DNA from: Candidatus Helarchaeota ASGARD archaeon Hel_GB_B
GTDB lineage: Archaea > Asgardarchaeota > Lokiarchaeia > Helarchaeales > HEL-GB-B
Reading direction: 5' to 3'
DNA length: 64,000 nt
Assembly (NCBI GenBank): GCA_005191425.1
Contig: SUPR01000002.1
Location: 2,453-66,452 of the forward strand
Position numbers and translations under genes: made by a program. The notes beneath the pieces were generated by a model. That model ran no database searches. It saw only the letters and a program-made list of their open reading frames with translations, and was not told the DNA's origin. Positions within the stretch are counted from its first letter, which is position 1; every line of letters starts with the position of its first letter. Below, piece after piece: positions 5,411 to 56,885 of this stretch.

Positions 5411-7042
5411 ATGAAAGAAAATCCAATAATTTTAGATACTCAAATAAGTAAAGTTGTTTTGTATAGGGATGGCGCAAAAATAGAAAGGAATGGAAATGTA
5501 GCGTTAGAAGTGGGGACTAATGAAATAAAGTTACCTAAAATTTCAAGATTTTGCGATCCAAATAGTATAAGGGTTAGTGGACTAGGTAGCGGTACTCTTG
5601 TAGATATTAAAGTAAATAAAAAATTTCAAGAACAAACAGGATTTCAAAAGTTAGACGAATTAATCAAAAAAAGAAAGGATTTAGAGAAAGAAATTTTTTC
5701 AAACAAAGAAGAATTAGGGTTTATTACCCAACGAAAAAATGATCTTAATCAAATTTTTAAAAATTTTGTAGTAGAGTTTCCAAAATGGTTTTCCAGTGGA
5801 GAAAGCGAGATTAAACGTTTAGAAGATTTAAATTCGCTGACTATAAGTCAGAATAATGAGTTATCATCAAAAATCGGTGAATTAAAACTTAAAATAGAAG
5901 ATTTAGAAAAAAAGTTATCTGTAATTAATGCCGAAATAGATAAAATTAATCGATTACATGATAGAAAAGTCGATGAATATTATGAAATTATAGTGACAAT
6001 TGAATCCGAAAAAAATGAAGAATTTGACCTGAAAGTATCTTATCAAGTAATGAATGCCTTCTGGGAACCGATATATGATGTAAATTTAAGTGAATCCCAA
6101 TGTGAAATAAAATATATGGCATCAATTGTAAATAACACTTTTGAAGATTGGAAAGATGTTGGTTTAGAAGTTTCTACCGCTGTTTTTCAATCAGTAGAAC
6201 TAATTGAACCTGAACCATGGTATATTGATGTATATTATCCTCCACCACCATCACCGCCGCCTAGACGTAAATATGCAATGAAAAAAATGTTGACCAGCGC
6301 CGCAAAGCCTTTAAAAATGGAAGAAAAAGCGGTAGACGAAAGTATGGAAGACGATTTTGTTGAGGAACAACTTGATTATAGACCAGAAATTAAAGAAGAA
6401 ACAGCATCATTTTCAGAAAATGCTACAGGTATCCAAATATTTTCATTACCAAACAAAGTTAATATACCATCAGATGGTAATCCACATCCTATACTTTTAA
6501 CGAAATTTGAATTAGATTCAAGGACTGAATATTATTGGTCTTCAATGAACCCAATTGGAGTAATTGCTCAAAGCATTATAAAAAATGGTGAAACTGTCCT
6601 ATTACCGAGTGAAAAAGTCAAAGTTTTTCATGAAAAAGATTTTGTAGGAGAAACTGCAATTAAGACAATATCGCCATTTGAAGAATTTAAACTGGGTACA
6701 CGATTAAGTTATGATTTAAAAGTAGAAAAGAAACTCTTAAAACGAAAGGCAGAAAAAGCCGGGATTATTAAGGGAAAATTAGGAAAAGATTATACATATT
6801 CCATTATTATCAACAATTTTAAAAAAGATGAAAAGAAAATTACAGTTATTGATAGGATCCCAATGTCGCGCTCAGAACAAATTAAAGTTGCAATTAAAGA
6901 AATTAGTCTTGAACCGAAAAAAGATAATCTAAATATTTTAGTATGGGAATTAACACTAAAACCAGAGGAAACAATTAAAATAAATTATAGTTTTAGTGTA
7001 GAATATGGAAAAGATGTTACTATAGTCCCTCCATTACCATAA
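5411..7042 (+). CDS. DUF4139/MuiA-like protein with central coiled coil and a proline-rich PPPPSPPP linker
   Basis: The N-terminal beta-rich segment (VVLYRDGAKIERNGNVALEVGTNEIKLP) resembles the DUF4140/DUF4139 family. Long heptad-like K/E-rich stretches follow. The assignment is tentative. Confidence 0.35.
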   Translation: MKENPIILDTQISKVVLYRDGAKIERNGNVALEVGTNEIKLPKISRFCDPNSIRVSGLGSGTLVDIKVNKKFQEQTGFQKLDELIKKRKDLEKEIFSNKEELGFITQRKNDLNQIFKNFVVEFPKWFSSGESEIKRLEDLNSLTISQNNELSSKIGELKLKIEDLEKKLSVINAEIDKINRLHDRKVDEYYEIIVTIESEKNEEFDLKVSYQVMNAFWEPIYDVNLSESQCEIKYMASIVNNTFEDWKDVGLEVSTAVFQSVELIEPEPWYIDVYYPPPPSPPPRRKYAMKKMLTSAAKPLKMEEKAVDESMEDDFVEEQLDYRPEIKEETASFSENATGIQIFSLPNKVNIPSDGNPHPILLTKFELDSRTEYYWSSMNPIGVIAQSIIKNGETVLLPSEKVKVFHEKDFVGETAIKTISPFEEFKLGTRLSYDLKVEKKLLKRKAEKAGIIKGKLGKDYTYSIIINNFKKDEKKITVIDRIPMSRSEQIKVAIKEISLEPKKDNLNILVWELTLKPEETIKINYSFSVEYGKDVTIVPPLP

Positions 7043-8656: not shown

Positions 8657-8746
8657 TCTAATGTCGAAACGATTTATTTGGTTTAAAATAGAATTAAAAT
8701 TAAAATTTAATAATTTTATTAATTATTTTACTATATTTTGTAATAT

Positions 8747-10555
8747 TTATTTTGGGATTATTTCGTTAAAAGGTTTTACAATGAACTCGCAAATAGGATC
8801 ACCTTTATTTATACATTTTACCTCTTTACAAATTACTTTTTCATTAGTTATACATTCAAATATCCCTGCAATAAGACCAGCAGTTAAGTGGTCAACTATT
8901 TCACCGGATTTGTTTTTAACCGAGCCTATGATTGTATTTTCTACAAATAGATGAGCTCTTTTTCTCTCAGGAGAAAAGTATTCCAGATGGAACGAGCCCC
9001 AGCCTTTAGAATTTGCTATTTTTGCCCAAAAATTAAAAATTGCCTCTCCTTCTAATTTTAACTTTTTAGACACATAATTTCCGAATTGAATTGCCATTTG
9101 TCTTCCTAAATTATATTGAATTTCACTGGACTGCTTTTTATCAGTTAATTTTTCTATACTATCAATTATTAGCCTTAAATTTTCATCAGAAATCAAAAAT
9201 GAACGGGACATTTCAATATTTATTATACCGTTTTTATCTATTCTTAAATTATTTTTTAATAAATTGGATTCATAAATTAATGGCTTTAATTTTTCTGCTG
9301 GAGTTGCTATAAAATCACAATATTTACTATAACCTATTGCATTACACTTGATTTCAATACAATCCCATTGATCTTTAGTAAACAGCTCGAGACATGATGT
9401 AATAAGTCCTGCCACTACGCTATGAATTGGTTTATTGGTTTCCCAACGCGCCAAATTATGGACTCTTACCTGTAATATGCCCCGTCGGAGCTCCATTTTC
9501 AATACTTCGACCTTTCCAATTCCAAATGAATTTAATATGTTAATCAGGTCAGCAGGAGTAAATTGAGTGCGAGTTCGTATTATATTTGAAAAAAATGGAT
9601 ATAATTGTTTTCCTGCAAGTTTACCAGCTTTATATAGAGTTTCATTATAAGTTAAATAATCTGTACTTTCAAATAATTTCTTTAATATTTTTGTATACAT
9701 TATTTTTGGAAGTACTAAAAACTCAGAACCAAACAATTTGATAATACCATCTTTAGAGATCGACATGTACTTTTTTATTGTTTCGAAATCTTCTAAAACT
9801 TCAGTTTTTAGTGATATACCTTTGTGAGTTAGGATATACGGGACTTCGGCAGAAATAATATCTGATCCGAACCCTCGGTTTTTAATTACCCTAAGATGAG
9901 GTATTAACGAATCGCCTATTTCTTTAACATTCAGGCTAATTATTGCGCCTGCCAAGTCTTCTAACGCAGTCATCAATTGTACAGAGTGGGCCCGGCGCTC
10001 GATATAAAATAATCCTAAATCACCTGTTTTTCTAAGAAAGTGGAAGATATCCCGAACAAATTTAAGTACCTTATTCTCATCTCCAACTGTAACGATCATA
10101 CTGGTGATGTCATCAAAAATCCATCTGGCATTAACACCTTCTGGAATATGTTCTCTTCGCAATCGTTCTATTTCATAACGCACTTTTGATAGGTCATGCG
10201 GACTACTCATCGTCTGAATTGATTCTTTGAACTTAAATTCTGGTGGAAATTCTACTTTACCATAACAATTTAAAATAATATACCTCTTTTTCTTTGTTAT
10301 CTCTTGGAAAAACGAAGGTGATGTCAAAAAGTCAGGTAATTGATAGAACTGATGAGGTGGATATAAATATTCAATAACAAAAACCTTTCCTCTATCTTTT
10401 AATAATTGTTCTAGAGCAAAATAACCCATAAATGCCGTTTTTCGCGTGCTAGGATGTTCCGAAATTATTAAAATTGCACAACCCGGAGATAACCCACCAC
10501 CTAAAAGTTTATCTAAACTCGCTAGCCCAAAAGGAATTACTGATCGTTTAATCAT
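8747..10555 (-). CDS. KaiC/RecA-superfamily ATPase-like domain (degenerate P-loop) fused to two C-terminal V4R (4-vinyl reductase/TRAPP-like) domains
   Basis: The N-terminus has RecA-like GLASLDKLLGGGL...AILIISEHPSTRKT with a degenerate Walker A. Two C-terminal modules each end in Cys-containing V4R-like motifs (CIEIKCNAIGYSKYCDF; KEVKCINKGDPICEF). Confidence 0.5.
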   Translation of the reverse strand: MIKRSVIPFGLASLDKLLGGGLSPGCAILIISEHPSTRKTAFMGYFALEQLLKDRGKVFVIEYLYPPHQFYQLPDFLTSPSFFQEITKKKRYIILNCYGKVEFPPEFKFKESIQTMSSPHDLSKVRYEIERLRREHIPEGVNARWIFDDITSMIVTVGDENKVLKFVRDIFHFLRKTGDLGLFYIERRAHSVQLMTALEDLAGAIISLNVKEIGDSLIPHLRVIKNRGFGSDIISAEVPYILTHKGISLKTEVLEDFETIKKYMSISKDGIIKLFGSEFLVLPKIMYTKILKKLFESTDYLTYNETLYKAGKLAGKQLYPFFSNIIRTRTQFTPADLINILNSFGIGKVEVLKMELRRGILQVRVHNLARWETNKPIHSVVAGLITSCLELFTKDQWDCIEIKCNAIGYSKYCDFIATPAEKLKPLIYESNLLKNNLRIDKNGIINIEMSRSFLISDENLRLIIDSIEKLTDKKQSSEIQYNLGRQMAIQFGNYVSKKLKLEGEAIFNFWAKIANSKGWGSFHLEYFSPERKRAHLFVENTIIGSVKNKSGEIVDHLTAGLIAGIFECITNEKVICKEVKCINKGDPICEFIVKPFNEIIPK

Positions 10556-19712: not shown

Positions 19713-20879
19713 TCATTTGAAAAATTTAGTCTTATGGCCCATTCCACTTGCAATTTTATGATCAGGGGTGATTTTAACGTCTAATGGTGTTTCATGGTCA
19801 ATATCTAATATATATCCTTCAAATGCCTCTTCTTCAGAGATGCCTAAATTCTCTAATGTACATTTTGACCCATTAGGCTCTTCTCTTATAATATTATCAT
19901 CCTTGTCGAGCAATTTTTTATAATGATCAGGAATTTTAGTATTTAAAGAAATTGCAGGTATTGGTATCCCTTCTTTCCACTGAGATAGATATATTAAATC
20001 ATAAATTTCAGGTAGGTCACTTTTTACCCATTCCAATGCCCTGTCTTCAATTGTAGATGTAATTAGTTTGTGAGAAGAAGTTAACCCTGCTAAGACCGTC
20101 TGAAATTTTGGTCGTGGCATATATACGATGCTACTAAATAATGGAGGAATAGGATAATATAGAAAATAATAGTCAGGTAATTTGTACTTGAACTTTGTGT
20201 TCAGACCATCATAGATATTTCCAAGCATTTCATAATTTGAAAGTTCTGAAAACATATTATACATTGCTGAAGACCAACAAACACAAACCCAATACCTTGA
20301 GTTTTTCCATTCAGGGCGCCTTTCATTACGGATGTCCATTAAGATGTCCATAAGGACATGAGCTGATTTTGATAAATCCTTGACTTTGGCTGGTATTTCT
20401 CTTATTTTCCATCCATATTTCATGTGTCTTCTGTCTAAAAGTTCATCGTCTAAACCAGCAAGATACCAATCAGAAGGGACTCCAGATTCCATATGACCAT
20501 TAAATACAAATAAAATTTCTGAACTAAAATCATCAATTATTGTGAAACTTACGTCTGTCGAGTCTCCATACATTAATTTATTCGTCCCAACTTGTAGGTC
20601 AGACCTAACTGAAATTATATGAGGAACGGTATATAAGACGCTTTTCTCAGCCTCTTCTTGGCTCATCTCTCCGGATAAGATCTTTTTTCCAGTAAATATC
20701 ATATTATTCCAACGATCTGCAGTAATATCATATTGTACTTGCCTAAATTTCCCCTGAAAACTCTTCATATATTCAAGCCCGAATTTTCTAAAGATTTTAT
20801 ATACATTTCTTGACAATGGCAAATAATATTTAGTCCGAGAATCATCAGGTATTTCTCCAAATGAATGTAAACCAGACAT
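19713..20879 (-). CDS. Hypothetical protein (388 aa), no recognisable family; it sits immediately beside an IS element
   Basis: Long intact ORF with host-like composition. No diagnostic motifs. Confidence 0.3.
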   Translation of the reverse strand: MSGLHSFGEIPDDSRTKYYLPLSRNVYKIFRKFGLEYMKSFQGKFRQVQYDITADRWNNMIFTGKKILSGEMSQEEAEKSVLYTVPHIISVRSDLQVGTNKLMYGDSTDVSFTIIDDFSSEILFVFNGHMESGVPSDWYLAGLDDELLDRRHMKYGWKIREIPAKVKDLSKSAHVLMDILMDIRNERRPEWKNSRYWVCVCWSSAMYNMFSELSNYEMLGNIYDGLNTKFKYKLPDYYFLYYPIPPLFSSIVYMPRPKFQTVLAGLTSSHKLITSTIEDRALEWVKSDLPEIYDLIYLSQWKEGIPIPAISLNTKIPDHYKKLLDKDDNIIREEPNGSKCTLENLGISEEEAFEGYILDIDHETPLDVKITPDHKIASGMGHKTKFFK

Positions 20880-21078: not shown

Positions 21079-22520
21079 CTAAAGTTCGACACCTTAATAT
21101 TAAAAAAATAAGTTATAAAAATTGATAGGGGTCCCAGTGGAAATAGACCTCTATTTTAAACCTTATAAACTAATTATTTCTTTATAATTAAATGATGAAC
21201 GTCATAAGTGAAAACATGATAGTTAGAGACTTTAGTCAGCTCTTGGAAGGCGATTTAGGAGCAGACCAAATAAAAGTCTTAATGATATATCTTAATGGAC
21301 TTATAACAGAAGATGAAGCTTCTATTAACAAGTTAGCAAAAAATACAGTAGATTCTTTTAATGAGCGGACTATGAACAGAAAATTAAAAAAATTGGCTTC
21401 AAATTCAAAAGATATACTGAAAAAATGTTTAAAATCTTATCAGCAGATACCGGAGCTGTCCATTGATGAAAATGGACTTTATATATTAGACGAACACATA
21501 ATAAGAAAATGGGGCAAAAAAATAGAGGGCTTGGGCTATTTCTACAGTTCATCAGAGAATAAAAAGGTTAAAGGGTTATCAGAGATAAGTGTTCATTATT
21601 ATAGTAAGAAAATAGAGTATCCTGTAACATATGACATTTTTAGAAAGAAAGATGAATTAGAAAAATATAATAAAGAAGGGCAGTTTAGGAGTAAAAATGA
21701 AATAGCGAGGTCTTTGATAAAGGAAACTATAGAGATAAATAGTAAATGTAAAAACTGGTCATTTGACCCGTATTTTTTTACCAAGGATACCGCTAAATAT
21801 TTGATAGAGCTGGGACAGTACTACGTATCGAGGATCAAACGTAATTGGAAGTGTACATTTAAGAAAAAACATTATTCAATATCAGAATTGTACGATACTC
21901 TAAAAAAGGACGATTTTCAATTAGTAAAAGTGAGACATTATAGTACCAAAAAAGTAAGATATTTTATGGTCGCGGAAAGAAATGTGTTCATAGAAAGGTT
22001 GGGAAATCAGCTGGTATTATATGTAAAGGAATTAAAAAAGGACGAAAAAGGAAATTTAATAGAGAAATATGAAGGTAAATATATGACCCTGGTATCAAAT
22101 ATGCTGGACAAAAGTCATGGTGAAATTATCAAAATATATATGATGCGGTGGCGAATAGAGACTGGATATAGAGACCAAAATCAAAATTTAAGCCTGGACA
22201 AGTGCAGATGGCGGGATATTGAAGGGCAGTACTGCTTTATTGCACTTGTATTCTTAGCATATTTGCTACTGTGCTGGGCACGTTATAAAGGGTATTTAAA
22301 GCCATACTCAGATAATTTAAATACTATTGGGTCTATAAAAGAATCATATAAAAAATATAATAATGAGCTATTTGCTGATTGGATAACTGACCTAAAAAAA
22401 CAATGTAATAACTGTAGGTTATTAAAACTTGTGTACCATTTGATTTATAACAAAAAAATTAATATATACCAGTCTGATTTATATATAAATTCTCAGATAA
22501 CTTGATGTGTCGAACTTTAG
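21079..22520 (+). mobile_element. Complete insertion sequence (~1.44 kb) with 14-bp perfect terminal inverted repeats CTAAAGTTCGACAC / GTGTCGAACTTTAG; encodes one DDE transposase
   Basis: IRL lies at 21079-21092 and IRR at 22507-22520, directly after the transposase stop. The transposase ORF fills the interval. Confidence 0.6.
21192..22505 (+). CDS. DDE-type transposase (IS4/IS701-superfamily-like)
   Basis: The C-terminus has YMMRWRIETGYRDQNQNL...K, the W-x-IE..(K/R) catalytic E-region typical of DDE transposases. Flanked by inverted repeats. Confidence 0.7.
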   Translation: MMNVISENMIVRDFSQLLEGDLGADQIKVLMIYLNGLITEDEASINKLAKNTVDSFNERTMNRKLKKLASNSKDILKKCLKSYQQIPELSIDENGLYILDEHIIRKWGKKIEGLGYFYSSSENKKVKGLSEISVHYYSKKIEYPVTYDIFRKKDELEKYNKEGQFRSKNEIARSLIKETIEINSKCKNWSFDPYFFTKDTAKYLIELGQYYVSRIKRNWKCTFKKKHYSISELYDTLKKDDFQLVKVRHYSTKKVRYFMVAERNVFIERLGNQLVLYVKELKKDEKGNLIEKYEGKYMTLVSNMLDKSHGEIIKIYMMRWRIETGYRDQNQNLSLDKCRWRDIEGQYCFIALVFLAYLLLCWARYKGYLKPYSDNLNTIGSIKESYKKYNNELFADWITDLKKQCNNCRLLKLVYHLIYNKKINIYQSDLYINSQIT

Positions 22521-33823: not shown

Positions 33824-34199
33824 AATAATCTATCGAAAAAATAATTATATTCAAAACCGATCTTATTATTAATTAATTTTCTGGTTTTGAAACCATTTTT
33901 TAAAAAAGGGTATTTTACTCTAAAATTTAATTTTTATTTTAATATTAGAGATTTAATGTTAATCTCATAATTTGATAAATTTTTTCAAGTAAAAAACATA
34001 TTGCTAGAATATATCATTTATCTTGTATATCTAATAGTAAAGTATTTTTATAATAATAAATAAATTAAAGAATTATTATGGAAATTAATCACATTTTAAA
34101 CTAATACTTATTTATAAACTGGATTTTAAAGATATTGTTAAGAAAATATTTTAATTATTATAATAATAAAGGAAATAAATGGAAAAAAATAAGATAATA

Positions 34200-34330
34200 T
34201 GGACCGGCCGGGAATTTCGTCTAAGTCCACAAAGAAATCCAAACGAATTTCATTTTTTTAGAGGACTAAATTTCGAACCCGGGGCCTCCAGATTGCAAGT
34301 CTGACGATCTACCAACTGATCTACCGGCCC
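34200..34330 (-). tRNA. tRNA-Ala (anticodon UGC) interrupted by a ~58-nt intron inside the T-loop (between positions 59/60)
   Basis: Minus strand reads GGGCCGG-TA-GATC-AGTTGGTA-GATC-G-TCAGA-CTTGCAA-TCTGG-AGGCC-CCGGG-TTCGAA[58 nt]T-CCCGG-CCGGTCC-A. The G3:U70 pair is the alanine identity element. The intron contains a 5-bp internal helix (AGTCC/GGACT). Confidence 0.75.
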
Positions 34331-34570
34331 TTTTTCTATTTTTCAATTAAAATGTTAAAACATTAATCTAATTCATTTATATTACTAAAAGTTTTTAAGT
34401 TTTTACATTATAAAAATTTTTTGTTATTATTTTAGATGATAATTACTATAATTTACAAAAAATGAAATTAAATAAATAAAAAAAGATTTTGATATATTGA
34501 AAACCAAATCTGAAATAATTTCCACAAAAATTTTTAGATATAGCTCATTATTAAAATTGGTGCCTATCAA

Positions 34571-44988: not shown

Positions 44989-46050
44989 TTAATCTTTAAT
45001 TCCAAGAGTAGCAAGATATGTTAAGAAAAATGAAAGTTGTAATTCATTATTAGATGGAACGCTAATATATGAATCGAATTTTGATATTTCTATAGAAATT
45101 TTCTTCTTTAATTCTTCTGTAATAGTTGATTCCATTAAAAATTTATTAAAAGCTTTTAATATCATTTTTCCTGATAAACTTTTTTTAATAAATAGATTTC
45201 TTAAAAAATTCCGCGCATCAACTATATTACCACTTATAGCTAATTTTAGACATTCCCCAATTTCTTTAATTTCTAGTTTCTTTATCATTTCATATATAAA
45301 ATTTTCTGTAATTTTTTTCTTATAACAACTTGCTGCTTCTAATATATTAATTGCAATATTCATATCATTATTAGAATAATAATAAATCAATTTTAAAGCA
45401 TTTTCAGTGATATTAATTTCCTCTGATTCGCATATATATTTAATTTTACTTAAAAATTGTTTTTGACTTAATGGAAATAATTTTAAATTTACACATCTCG
45501 ACCTAATTGGGTCTATTATATTTGAAACTGAATTTGCCACCAATATAAATCTACATATCCTACTATATTTTTCCATAGTCCTCCTTAATGCCTGCTGTAT
45601 TATTCTTTCTAATTTATCCGCTTCATAGATGATCAAGATTTTGTGGTCAGCAGAATCTAACGTTTTAGTTTTTGGATAGTTTCTGATAATTGTAAATAAT
45701 ATATCTATTCTACTTGGACTTTTAGACTTGCCGTGTCTTTTTAGACTTATTTTGCTAGCCTCTACCCAATATGGCATGTATTCATAGTAGAAATTCTTAC
45801 TATCTGAAGCAAAAATCTCTTCAATATTCGCTTTATATGTTGTTCCATATAAGTCATGCACCAAACTTGATACTATTGAGGTCTTTCCTTTAGGATGAAA
45901 ATAACCTACATTTCAAATTCCCGGAGGACCATATAACAACAAGTTCGGTAAATTTCCGCTTTTTACATATTTTTTAATCTGATTTATTATATGTTCTTGT
46001 CCTATAATATTTTCTAATGTATCTGGACGGTATTTTTCTATCCATGACAT
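44989..46050 (-). CDS. rfcS: Replication factor C small subunit; the reading frame is interrupted by an in-frame TGA within a 27-nt insertion in the Walker-A codons
   Basis: Minus-strand translation from ATG at 46048-46050 gives [68 protein letters not shown]... and continues into the 291-aa track ORF (DEAD-like IIYEAD Walker B, SRC motif). Confidence 0.8.
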
Positions 46051-56783: not shown

Positions 56784-56885
56784 GGGCCGGTGATCTAGAA
56801 GCAATATATCGGCAATATTATTGGAAATCGGTATGATATCGCCCTCACGCGGCGAAAATCGTGGGTTCAATTCCCACCCGGCCCA
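56784..56885 (+). tRNA. tRNA-Val (anticodon CAC) interrupted by a ~29-nt intron in the D-loop
   Basis: GGGCCGG-TG-ATCT-AG[~29 nt]TC-GGTA-TGAT-A-TCGCC-CTCACGC-GGCGA-AAATC-GTGGG-TTCAATT-CCCAC-CCGGCCC-A. All stems pair. 102 nt total against a 73-nt mature length. Confidence 0.75.

Follow-up and report, generated by a model that had tools for sequence, protein, structure and literature searches.

The window, the whole 64-kb stretch of DNA that was analysed, has a GC content of about 29% and contains archaeal genes that include those for CDC48, Hef, RFC, TruD, proteasome subunits, AOR and HdrA. The HdrA-like protein encoded next to the feature described here is 100% identical to a protein from a Candidatus Helarchaeota MAG, and the RFC large subunit shares 66–70% identity with proteins of Helarchaeota and Lokiarchaeota. 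The locus recurs in identical form in several MAGs and metagenomes. Beside hdrA, on the minus strand, lies an interrupted gene for tRNA-Ala(UGC) of 131 nt, in which G1 is the complement of position 34330 and A73 the complement of position 34200. The features of the gene and its flanks are collected in Table 1.

Table 1. Features of the interrupted tRNA-Ala(UGC) gene and its flanks, with positions numbered along the window
Feature	Position	Strand	Basis
Complete tRNA-Ala(UGC) gene; pre-tRNA body of 131 nt, CCA not encoded	34200..34330	-	Sequence read, in silico splice, ARAGORN; identical in four same-species contigs
5′ exon, tRNA nt 1–59: acceptor 5′ strand, D-arm, anticodon arm, variable loop, T-stem 5′ strand, T-loop U54–A59	34272..34330	-	Sequence parse; partial Rfam tRNA match 34274–34330
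Anticodon UGC, nt 34–36	34295..34297	-	Sequence parse
58-nt BHB intron between tRNA nt 59 and 60	34214..34271	-	Parse, BHB layout; orthologous introns of L026 and L041 share the site
3′ exon: U60, T-stem 3′ strand C61–G65, acceptor 3′ strand 66–72 (U70), discriminator A73	34200..34213	-	Sequence parse
Central BHB helix H, 5′ strand, U54 U55 C56 G57	34274..34277	-	MFE fold without constraints, paired with 34219..34216
Central BHB helix H, 3′ strand, intron CGAA	34216..34219	-	MFE fold, register layout, covariation
5′ bulge, A58 A59 and A (intron nt 1); predicted cut after the second nucleotide (59/60, 5′ splice site)	34271..34273	-	Register layout; canonical 37/38 geometry (PMC4090602)
3′ bulge, A U and U60; predicted cut after the second nucleotide (3′ splice site)	34213..34215	-	MFE fold; AUU or ACU in orthologues
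Helix h′, 5′ strand, intron nt 2–6 UUUAG; alternative register AGUCC at 34267..34263	34266..34270	-	Five contiguous pairs (two G:U) with 34224..34220
Helix h′, 3′ strand, intron nt 48–52 UUAGA	34220..34224	-	BHB register layout
T7 run 11–17 nt after A73, likely archaeal oligo-T terminator	34183..34189	-	Sequence; L026 and L041 have T5 to T7 runs at the equivalent place
TTTTTATA preceded by AAAAAA, 79–86 nt upstream of G1, candidate BRE/TATA	34409..34416	-	AAAAAATTTTTATA conserved at the same distance

Anatomy and identity of the gene

Read from G1, the 5′ part of the gene is GGGCCGG UA GAUC AGUUGGUA GAUC G UCAGA CUUGCAA UCUGG AGGCC CCGGG UUCGAA, and after an insert of 58 nt it resumes with U CCCGG CCGGUCC A. 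All of the stems are paired: the acceptor stem at 7/7 positions, including G3:U70; the D-stem at 4/4; the anticodon stem at 5/5, with one U:G pair; and the T-stem at 5/5. The elements that identify an alanine tRNA—the G3:U70 wobble pair, discriminator A73 and the anticodon UGC—are all present, and the gene of the window does not encode CCA. In silico excision of the 58 nt (34271..34214) yields the T-loop UUCGAAU, with a predicted exon junction at which ...GGGUUCGAA is followed directly by UCCCGG..., and a 73-nt product that ARAGORN calls as tRNA-Ala(tgc).

The joined exons are recognized by ARAGORN; the gene as it stands is not. ARAGORN called no tRNA in the 64-kb window either with or without its intron mode, and with intron options and lowered thresholds it returned only implausible calls elsewhere, never this gene. 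The Rfam tRNA model matches only the 5′ 57 nt (34274–34330; 31.7 bits) and places a false acceptor stem on them. The exons form a canonical alanine tRNA, which ARAGORN recognizes only once the 58 nt have been excised. An earlier note on this DNA had stated, leaving the minus strand unmentioned, that all stems pair with G3:U70 present, that the T-loop TTCGAAT is restored by excising 58 nt, that the insert carries a 5-bp helix of its own and that standard scanners often miss or mis-call such genes. The stem count, the ARAGORN call on the spliced product, the intron helix described below and the behaviour of the two search tools agree with these statements.

A strict BHB motif at 59/60

When the junctions between the exons and the intron are laid out in BHB register, helix h has 5/5 pairs, the central helix H has 4/4 pairs, both bulges are 3 nt long and helix h′ has 5 bp. 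Folded without constraints, the 131-nt precursor has as its MFE structure a cloverleaf in which the T-stem is extended by the 4-bp helix UUCG:CGAA and a 3-nt AUU bulge; the intron CGAA that pairs with U54–G57 sits 3–6 nt before the end of the intron. Beyond a small internal loop, the same fold contains the intron helix AGUCC:GGACU and an inner hairpin. The three weak h′ pairs beside the 5′ bulge are open in the MFE fold, giving a 6 × 4 internal loop, and the fold prefers AGUCC:GGACU, one step further in than the h′ of the register layout. The alternatives for h′ are 5 bp in register, or 3 bp, a bulge and 5 bp.

The frequency with which such a motif arises was estimated from shuffled inserts and from real 58-mers of the window. 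A 4/4 central helix appears in about 2% of these, and only about 0.15% combine such a helix with an in-register h′ of 3 bp or more. The motif is thus unlikely to be a product of chance, and it occurs again in two further species. In a strict-BHB scan of the precursor, 59/60 ranks best among the candidates that leave a valid tRNA.

[quoted passage not shown] This geometry puts the cut after the second bulge nucleotide. In the present case, the rule leads to precisely 59/60 and to the correct mature T-loop. What 37/38 is in the anticodon arm, 59/60 is in the T-arm: the site that follows the sixth nucleotide of a 7-nt loop carried on a 5-bp stem. Relaxed splice motifs are defined by a disrupted bulge (PMC5829648); the motif of the tRNA-Ala intron is a strict 3-4-3 hBHBh′ and does not belong with the relaxed forms hBH, HBh′ or BHL. 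Folding of the junctions had been proposed in the earlier note, which took the failure of any BHB-like structure there as a sign of a pseudogene; a strict BHB is present.

Conservation and covariation among orthologues

Orthologues were located by synteny walking from the RFC and HdrA homologues. Locus L026 carries the tRNA-Ala gene at 20513–20643, divergent from hdrA and with a 58-nt intron at the same 59/60 site. One further species (L040, L041 and L042), in which the gene is likewise divergent from hdrA, has a 56-nt intron at 59/60 and encodes CCA. The mature tRNA-Ala of these orthologues is identical to that of the window at 65–71 of 73 positions (exons 89–97%), whereas the introns of the three species, although inserted at the same site, are only 48–52% identical. 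G3:U70 is invariant in the three orthologues (window, L026 and L041). Five copies from the species of the window (the window itself, L001–L003 and L029) have an identical gene, with SNPs in the flanks.

In an alignment of the three sequences, pairing is complete (100% of cells) in the cloverleaf and in helix H. Pairs that have changed on both sides are 7:66, 31:39, 49:65 and, in the central helix, G57:C to A57:U, where a G57-to-A change in the exon of L026 is compensated by a C-to-U change in its intron. When the partner columns are slid by one, pairing falls from 98% to 48–56%. A shuffle control for covariation, run on this alignment of three distinct sequences, gave 66/500 and was not significant. 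The intron helix is kept with differing letters in the three species, as AGUCC/GGACU, UGGUGUCAG/CUGAUAUCA and GGUACC/GGUACC. The MFE fold of L026 lacks the UUCA:UGAA helix, and the BHB-constrained fold of this precursor costs 7.4 kcal/mol more.

A different arrangement is found in L044, a MAG labelled as Lokiarchaeota (GCA_014729825.1), in which an intronless tRNA-Ala(UGC) with the T-loop UUCGAGA lies at 220–292 on the minus strand, upstream of the orthologous hdrA. Since the intron is present in three species and absent from L044, it has been gained or lost within the group, and the 59/60 intron is polymorphic among related genera. No tRNA stands beside hdrA in L034, L035, L036–39, L043, L045 or L046, several of which represent a different hdrA locus; the informative loci of the hdrA synteny walk were only L026, L040–42 and L044. 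A scan of metagenomes with the pattern of the 5′ exon returned a same-species contig and unrelated tRNAs only, and a scan of viral contigs gave no match.

Interpretation and alternatives

These observations make it very probable that the locus is a functional Helarchaeota tRNA-Ala(UGC) gene, the transcript of which contains a 58-nt BHB intron between nt 59 and 60 that copies the 37/38 geometry in the T-arm. The earlier note had read the sequence in the same way, as a tRNA-Ala(UGC) with a 58-nt intron of archaeal type at 59/60, and its reading gains support from the BHB structure, the conservation and the covariation.

It is very unlikely that the gene is instead a pseudogene, an alanine tRNA inactivated by a 58-nt insertion into the T-loop. 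Standard tools make no call at the locus, and the syntenic gene of L044 does without the insert, which is therefore not essential to the locus. However, in three species the insert occupies the same exact site and no stem is broken, and identity is only about 50% in the introns compared with 89–97% in the exons; the G57-to-A change in the exon is compensated inside the intron, and the strict BHB at the junctions predicts a perfect T-loop. The oligo-T run and the upstream TATA-like element have also been retained. The 3′ halves of tRNA genes are common targets of integration, and a scan described below did recover one such case (L012), which raises the question of whether the insert is a scar left by a mobile element or by integration at an att site rather than a spliced intron. 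We give this reading almost no weight, because no part of the tRNA is duplicated, no direct repeat of an exon flanks the insert and the single 3′ exon completes the T-loop precisely; the 58 nt encode nothing, and a BHB with covariation is not expected of an att scar.

A function of the excised intron as a small RNA, either a box C/D guide or a stable circular RNA, could in principle maintain the insert, as euryarchaeal tRNA-Trp introns carry a box C/D guide and the introns here have a near-constant length (58, 58 and 56 nt) and a stem-loop kept in all three orthologues. The introns themselves make such a function improbable, although marginally less so than inactivation of the gene: none of the three contains a C box (RUGAUGA with at most one mismatch), CUGA occurs in two of them at differing places, and no Rfam family matches. 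Outside the ends that form the BHB, they have diverged about as far as unconstrained AT-rich DNA, and the conserved helix is accounted for by the requirement for h′.

The earlier note had also regarded introns at non-canonical positions as characteristic of particular archaeal lineages and as requiring a splicing endonuclease of relaxed specificity. The first part is borne out, as the host belongs to the Helarchaeota and non-canonical tRNA introns are abundant in Asgard archaea (PMC11291895). The second part is plausible for the lineage, but a strict 3-4-3 BHB makes no such demand. That a relaxed enzyme is obligatory because the splice motif itself is non-canonical (hBH or HBh′) is a more serious proposition than the alternatives above, and one that we nevertheless consider unlikely. 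The abstract of PMC5829648 ties non-canonical introns in general to (alpha-beta)2 and epsilon2 enzymes, the opening of three h′ pairs beside the 5′ bulge in the MFE fold can be read as hBH, and a D-loop intron in a tRNA-Val gene of the same window fits no strict BHB. Against this, both 3-nt bulges and the 4-bp helix of the tRNA-Ala motif are intact, the 5-bp h and the h′ can form, and the definition in PMC5829648 needs a disrupted bulge, of which the tRNA-Ala intron has none. A need for relaxed specificity is plausible and better supported by the tRNA-Val intron; the (alpha-beta)2 EndA with an L1 specificity loop that has been reported throughout the Asgard archaea (PMC5829648) points in the same direction.

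Proposed splicing pathway

If the gene is expressed, as we infer, U54–G57 of the precursor would pair with CGAA near the 3′ end of the intron to form a 4-bp central helix stacked on the T-stem (h). This helix would be flanked by the two 3-nt bulges, beyond which the intron helix h′ would follow. As in established archaeal tRNA splicing, EndA would then cut each bulge behind its second nucleotide, and a ligase of the RtcB type would join the 2′,3′-cyclic phosphate and 5′-OH ends to give the T-loop UUCGAAU, with CCA added after the exons have been joined. Because U54–G57 are held in helix H until splicing, the contacts between the T-loop and the D-loop cannot form in the precursor, and with the T-loop blocked in this way splicing would be expected to precede the modifications of the T-loop. 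No gene for EndA or for an RtcB-type ligase lies within the 64-kb window.

Comparison with known introns

The intron resembles the BHB introns of Thermoproteales, other Crenarchaeota and Nanoarchaeota, in which a 3-4-3 BHB can be transplanted to other positions of the tRNA, 59/60 among them, and in which the intron is short and non-coding. The present host, by contrast, is an Asgard archaeon (Helarchaeota) with about 29% GC rather than a hyperthermophilic crenarchaeon, and the present motif is strict rather than relaxed. Non-canonical introns in Thermoproteales are usually shorter than 58 nt. Self-splicing introns of groups I and II have a ribozyme core of hundreds of nucleotides; an insert of 58 nt fits neither group, and no Rfam intron model matches the window at its gathering threshold or at E ≤ 1.

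The canonical 37/38 intron of archaea and eukaryotes has an identical geometry, in that a 5-bp stem with a 7-nt loop supplies h, the first four loop nucleotides supply H and the cut falls after loop nucleotide 6. It differs in that the present intron lies in the T-arm, so that the tertiary contacts between the T-loop and the D-loop are impossible until splicing has taken place. A ruler of the eukaryal type, which measures from the mature domain, would be unable to set the cuts at 59/60.

Within the same superphylum, non-canonical or multiple introns are common in Atabeyarchaeia and Freyarchaeia, in which they affect 92–95% of tRNA genes, and two endonuclease genes of the K01170 type are tabulated for the Atabeya-1 genome, in line with an (alpha-beta)2 enzyme (PMC11291895). 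However, tRNA-Ala(TGC) is tabulated as intronless in both of the Atabeyarchaeia genomes (PMC11291895), and the T-loop intron of Helarchaeota is therefore a separate, lineage-specific case. Position 59/60 is listed among the known intron sites of archaeal tRNAs (Yoshihisa 2014, PMC4090602), and T-arm introns have been noted in recent structural work. The position and the occurrence of non-canonical introns in Asgard archaea are therefore already described, and what is new is a well-supported further example. It provides a clean Asgard case of a T-arm intron that is backed by covariation and accompanied by an intron-free syntenic orthologue, and the pair of intron-bearing and intronless genes is useful for studying the gain or loss of BHB introns among the archaea most closely related to eukaryotes. 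Considered by itself, the tRNA-Ala(UGC) call chiefly corrects the annotation, as a MAG in which default scanners miss the gene would appear to be without a decoder for GCA and GCG.

Distribution elsewhere in Archaea

One genome per GTDB species was scanned with a pattern for tRNA-Ala(UGC) in which a T-loop insert of 38–68 nt was required. The 59/60 arrangement was returned from nine DPANN genomes (L008, L011, L013, L014, L015, L017, L018, L020 and L024), and this T-loop-insert scan returned no Asgard genome, that of the window's own species included. The DPANN loci, from Aenigmatarchaeota, Woesearchaeota and Nanoarchaeota (MAGs and a SAG), share with the window the isoacceptor, the site, a UUCR:YGAA central helix, 3-nt bulges and a hairpin that serves as h′; as the central helix was built into the search pattern, only the h′ hairpins are independent evidence among these loci. 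They differ in the body of the tRNA (anticodon stem and T-stem) and have introns of 38–64 nt with unrelated sequence, some of them with an intron in the D-arm too. In L008, L013 and L020 (Aenigmatarchaeota), there seems to be a second insert in the region of the D-arm, and the sequence 5′ of the anticodon stem is unlike a normal D-arm.

The same pattern was matched by L012, a DHVE2 MAG, at 6199–6308. At this locus, the tRNA-Ala(UGC) is intact, and its last 14 nt (TCCCGCCCGGTCCA) recur as a direct repeat about 55 nt downstream. The repeat looks like the duplication of an att site by integration, which mimicked a T-loop intron in the scan.

Further interrupted genes in the window

A second disrupted tRNA gene, for tRNA-Val(CAC), lies at 56784–56885 on the plus strand. 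It scores 28.7 bits with Rfam, against a threshold of 29 bits, and is missed by ARAGORN with default settings. About 27–29 extra nucleotides are located in its D-loop, between nt 15 and G18 (around 56799–56829), and when these are removed ARAGORN calls a tRNA-Val(cac) of 73–75 nt. A search for a strict 3-4-3 BHB at this intron found none that fits, and the motif is thus relaxed.

The gene for the RFC small subunit, on the minus strand, is also interrupted, with exon 1 at 46050..45917 and exon 2 at 45889..44989. The insert between them (45916..45890, minus strand) is 27 nt long, contains an in-frame stop and splits the codons of the Walker-A motif (P-loop) between GPPGI and GKTS. Its unconstrained MFE fold is an exact hBHBh′, with h as UCC:GGA, H as GGGA:UCCU, bulges AUU and AAA, and h′ as UGAAA:UUUCA. 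With each bulge cut behind its second nucleotide, as predicted, GPPGIGKTS is restored in frame, at a spliced junction where ...CCGGGAAU is followed by AGGAAAGACC... (positions 45917 and 45889 of the window). Inserts with the same motif occur at the same site in L026 (28 nt, at ~8700–8990, where the reading frame would otherwise be shifted) and in L027 and L028 (24 nt; L027 at ~8880–9200). All six close relatives of this RFC small subunit in the databases have been called as N-terminally truncated 'hypothetical proteins' at the site of the insert.

A known case of a BHB intron in an archaeal pre-mRNA is that of cbf5 in Crenarchaeota. Our literature search found no report of a BHB intron in RFC or in an Asgard mRNA, and if the RFC intron is spliced, Asgard archaea would have a BHB intron within the protein-coding sequence of a gene essential for replication. 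Judged from their sequences, the introns of tRNA-Ala, RFC and tRNA-Val suggest an endonuclease with broad substrates that include an mRNA. We tentatively suggest that the T-loop intron may be one sign of unusually wide BHB splicing in the Helarchaeales clade, alongside the tRNA-Val and RFC introns, although somewhat less than an even chance is all that we would give it.

The spacer between hdrA and the tRNA gene

Upstream of the tRNA-Ala gene, AAAAAATTTTTATA is conserved 79–92 nt away in the window, L026 and L041. The 240-bp spacer between hdrA and the tRNA gene (34331–34570 in the window, 20273–20512 in L026) has the same length in the two loci and is ~80–90% identical, compared with ~60% for hdrA DNA, 53% for the HdrA proteins and ~50% for the intron; the 3′ flanks cannot be aligned. 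L026 is closer to L041 in hdrA, but closer to the window in the spacer and the tRNA exons. The similarity of the spacer could reflect constraint, from promoters, a leader or an unknown RNA, or recombination that ended within the conserved 5′ exon. A reading of the conserved upstream spacer as a C/D-box RNA was rejected by eye, as L026 does not preserve the candidate boxes. Elsewhere in the window, an ORF with DDE transposase domains (PF01609 and PF13546) at 21192–22505 on the plus strand indicates the presence of an insertion sequence.
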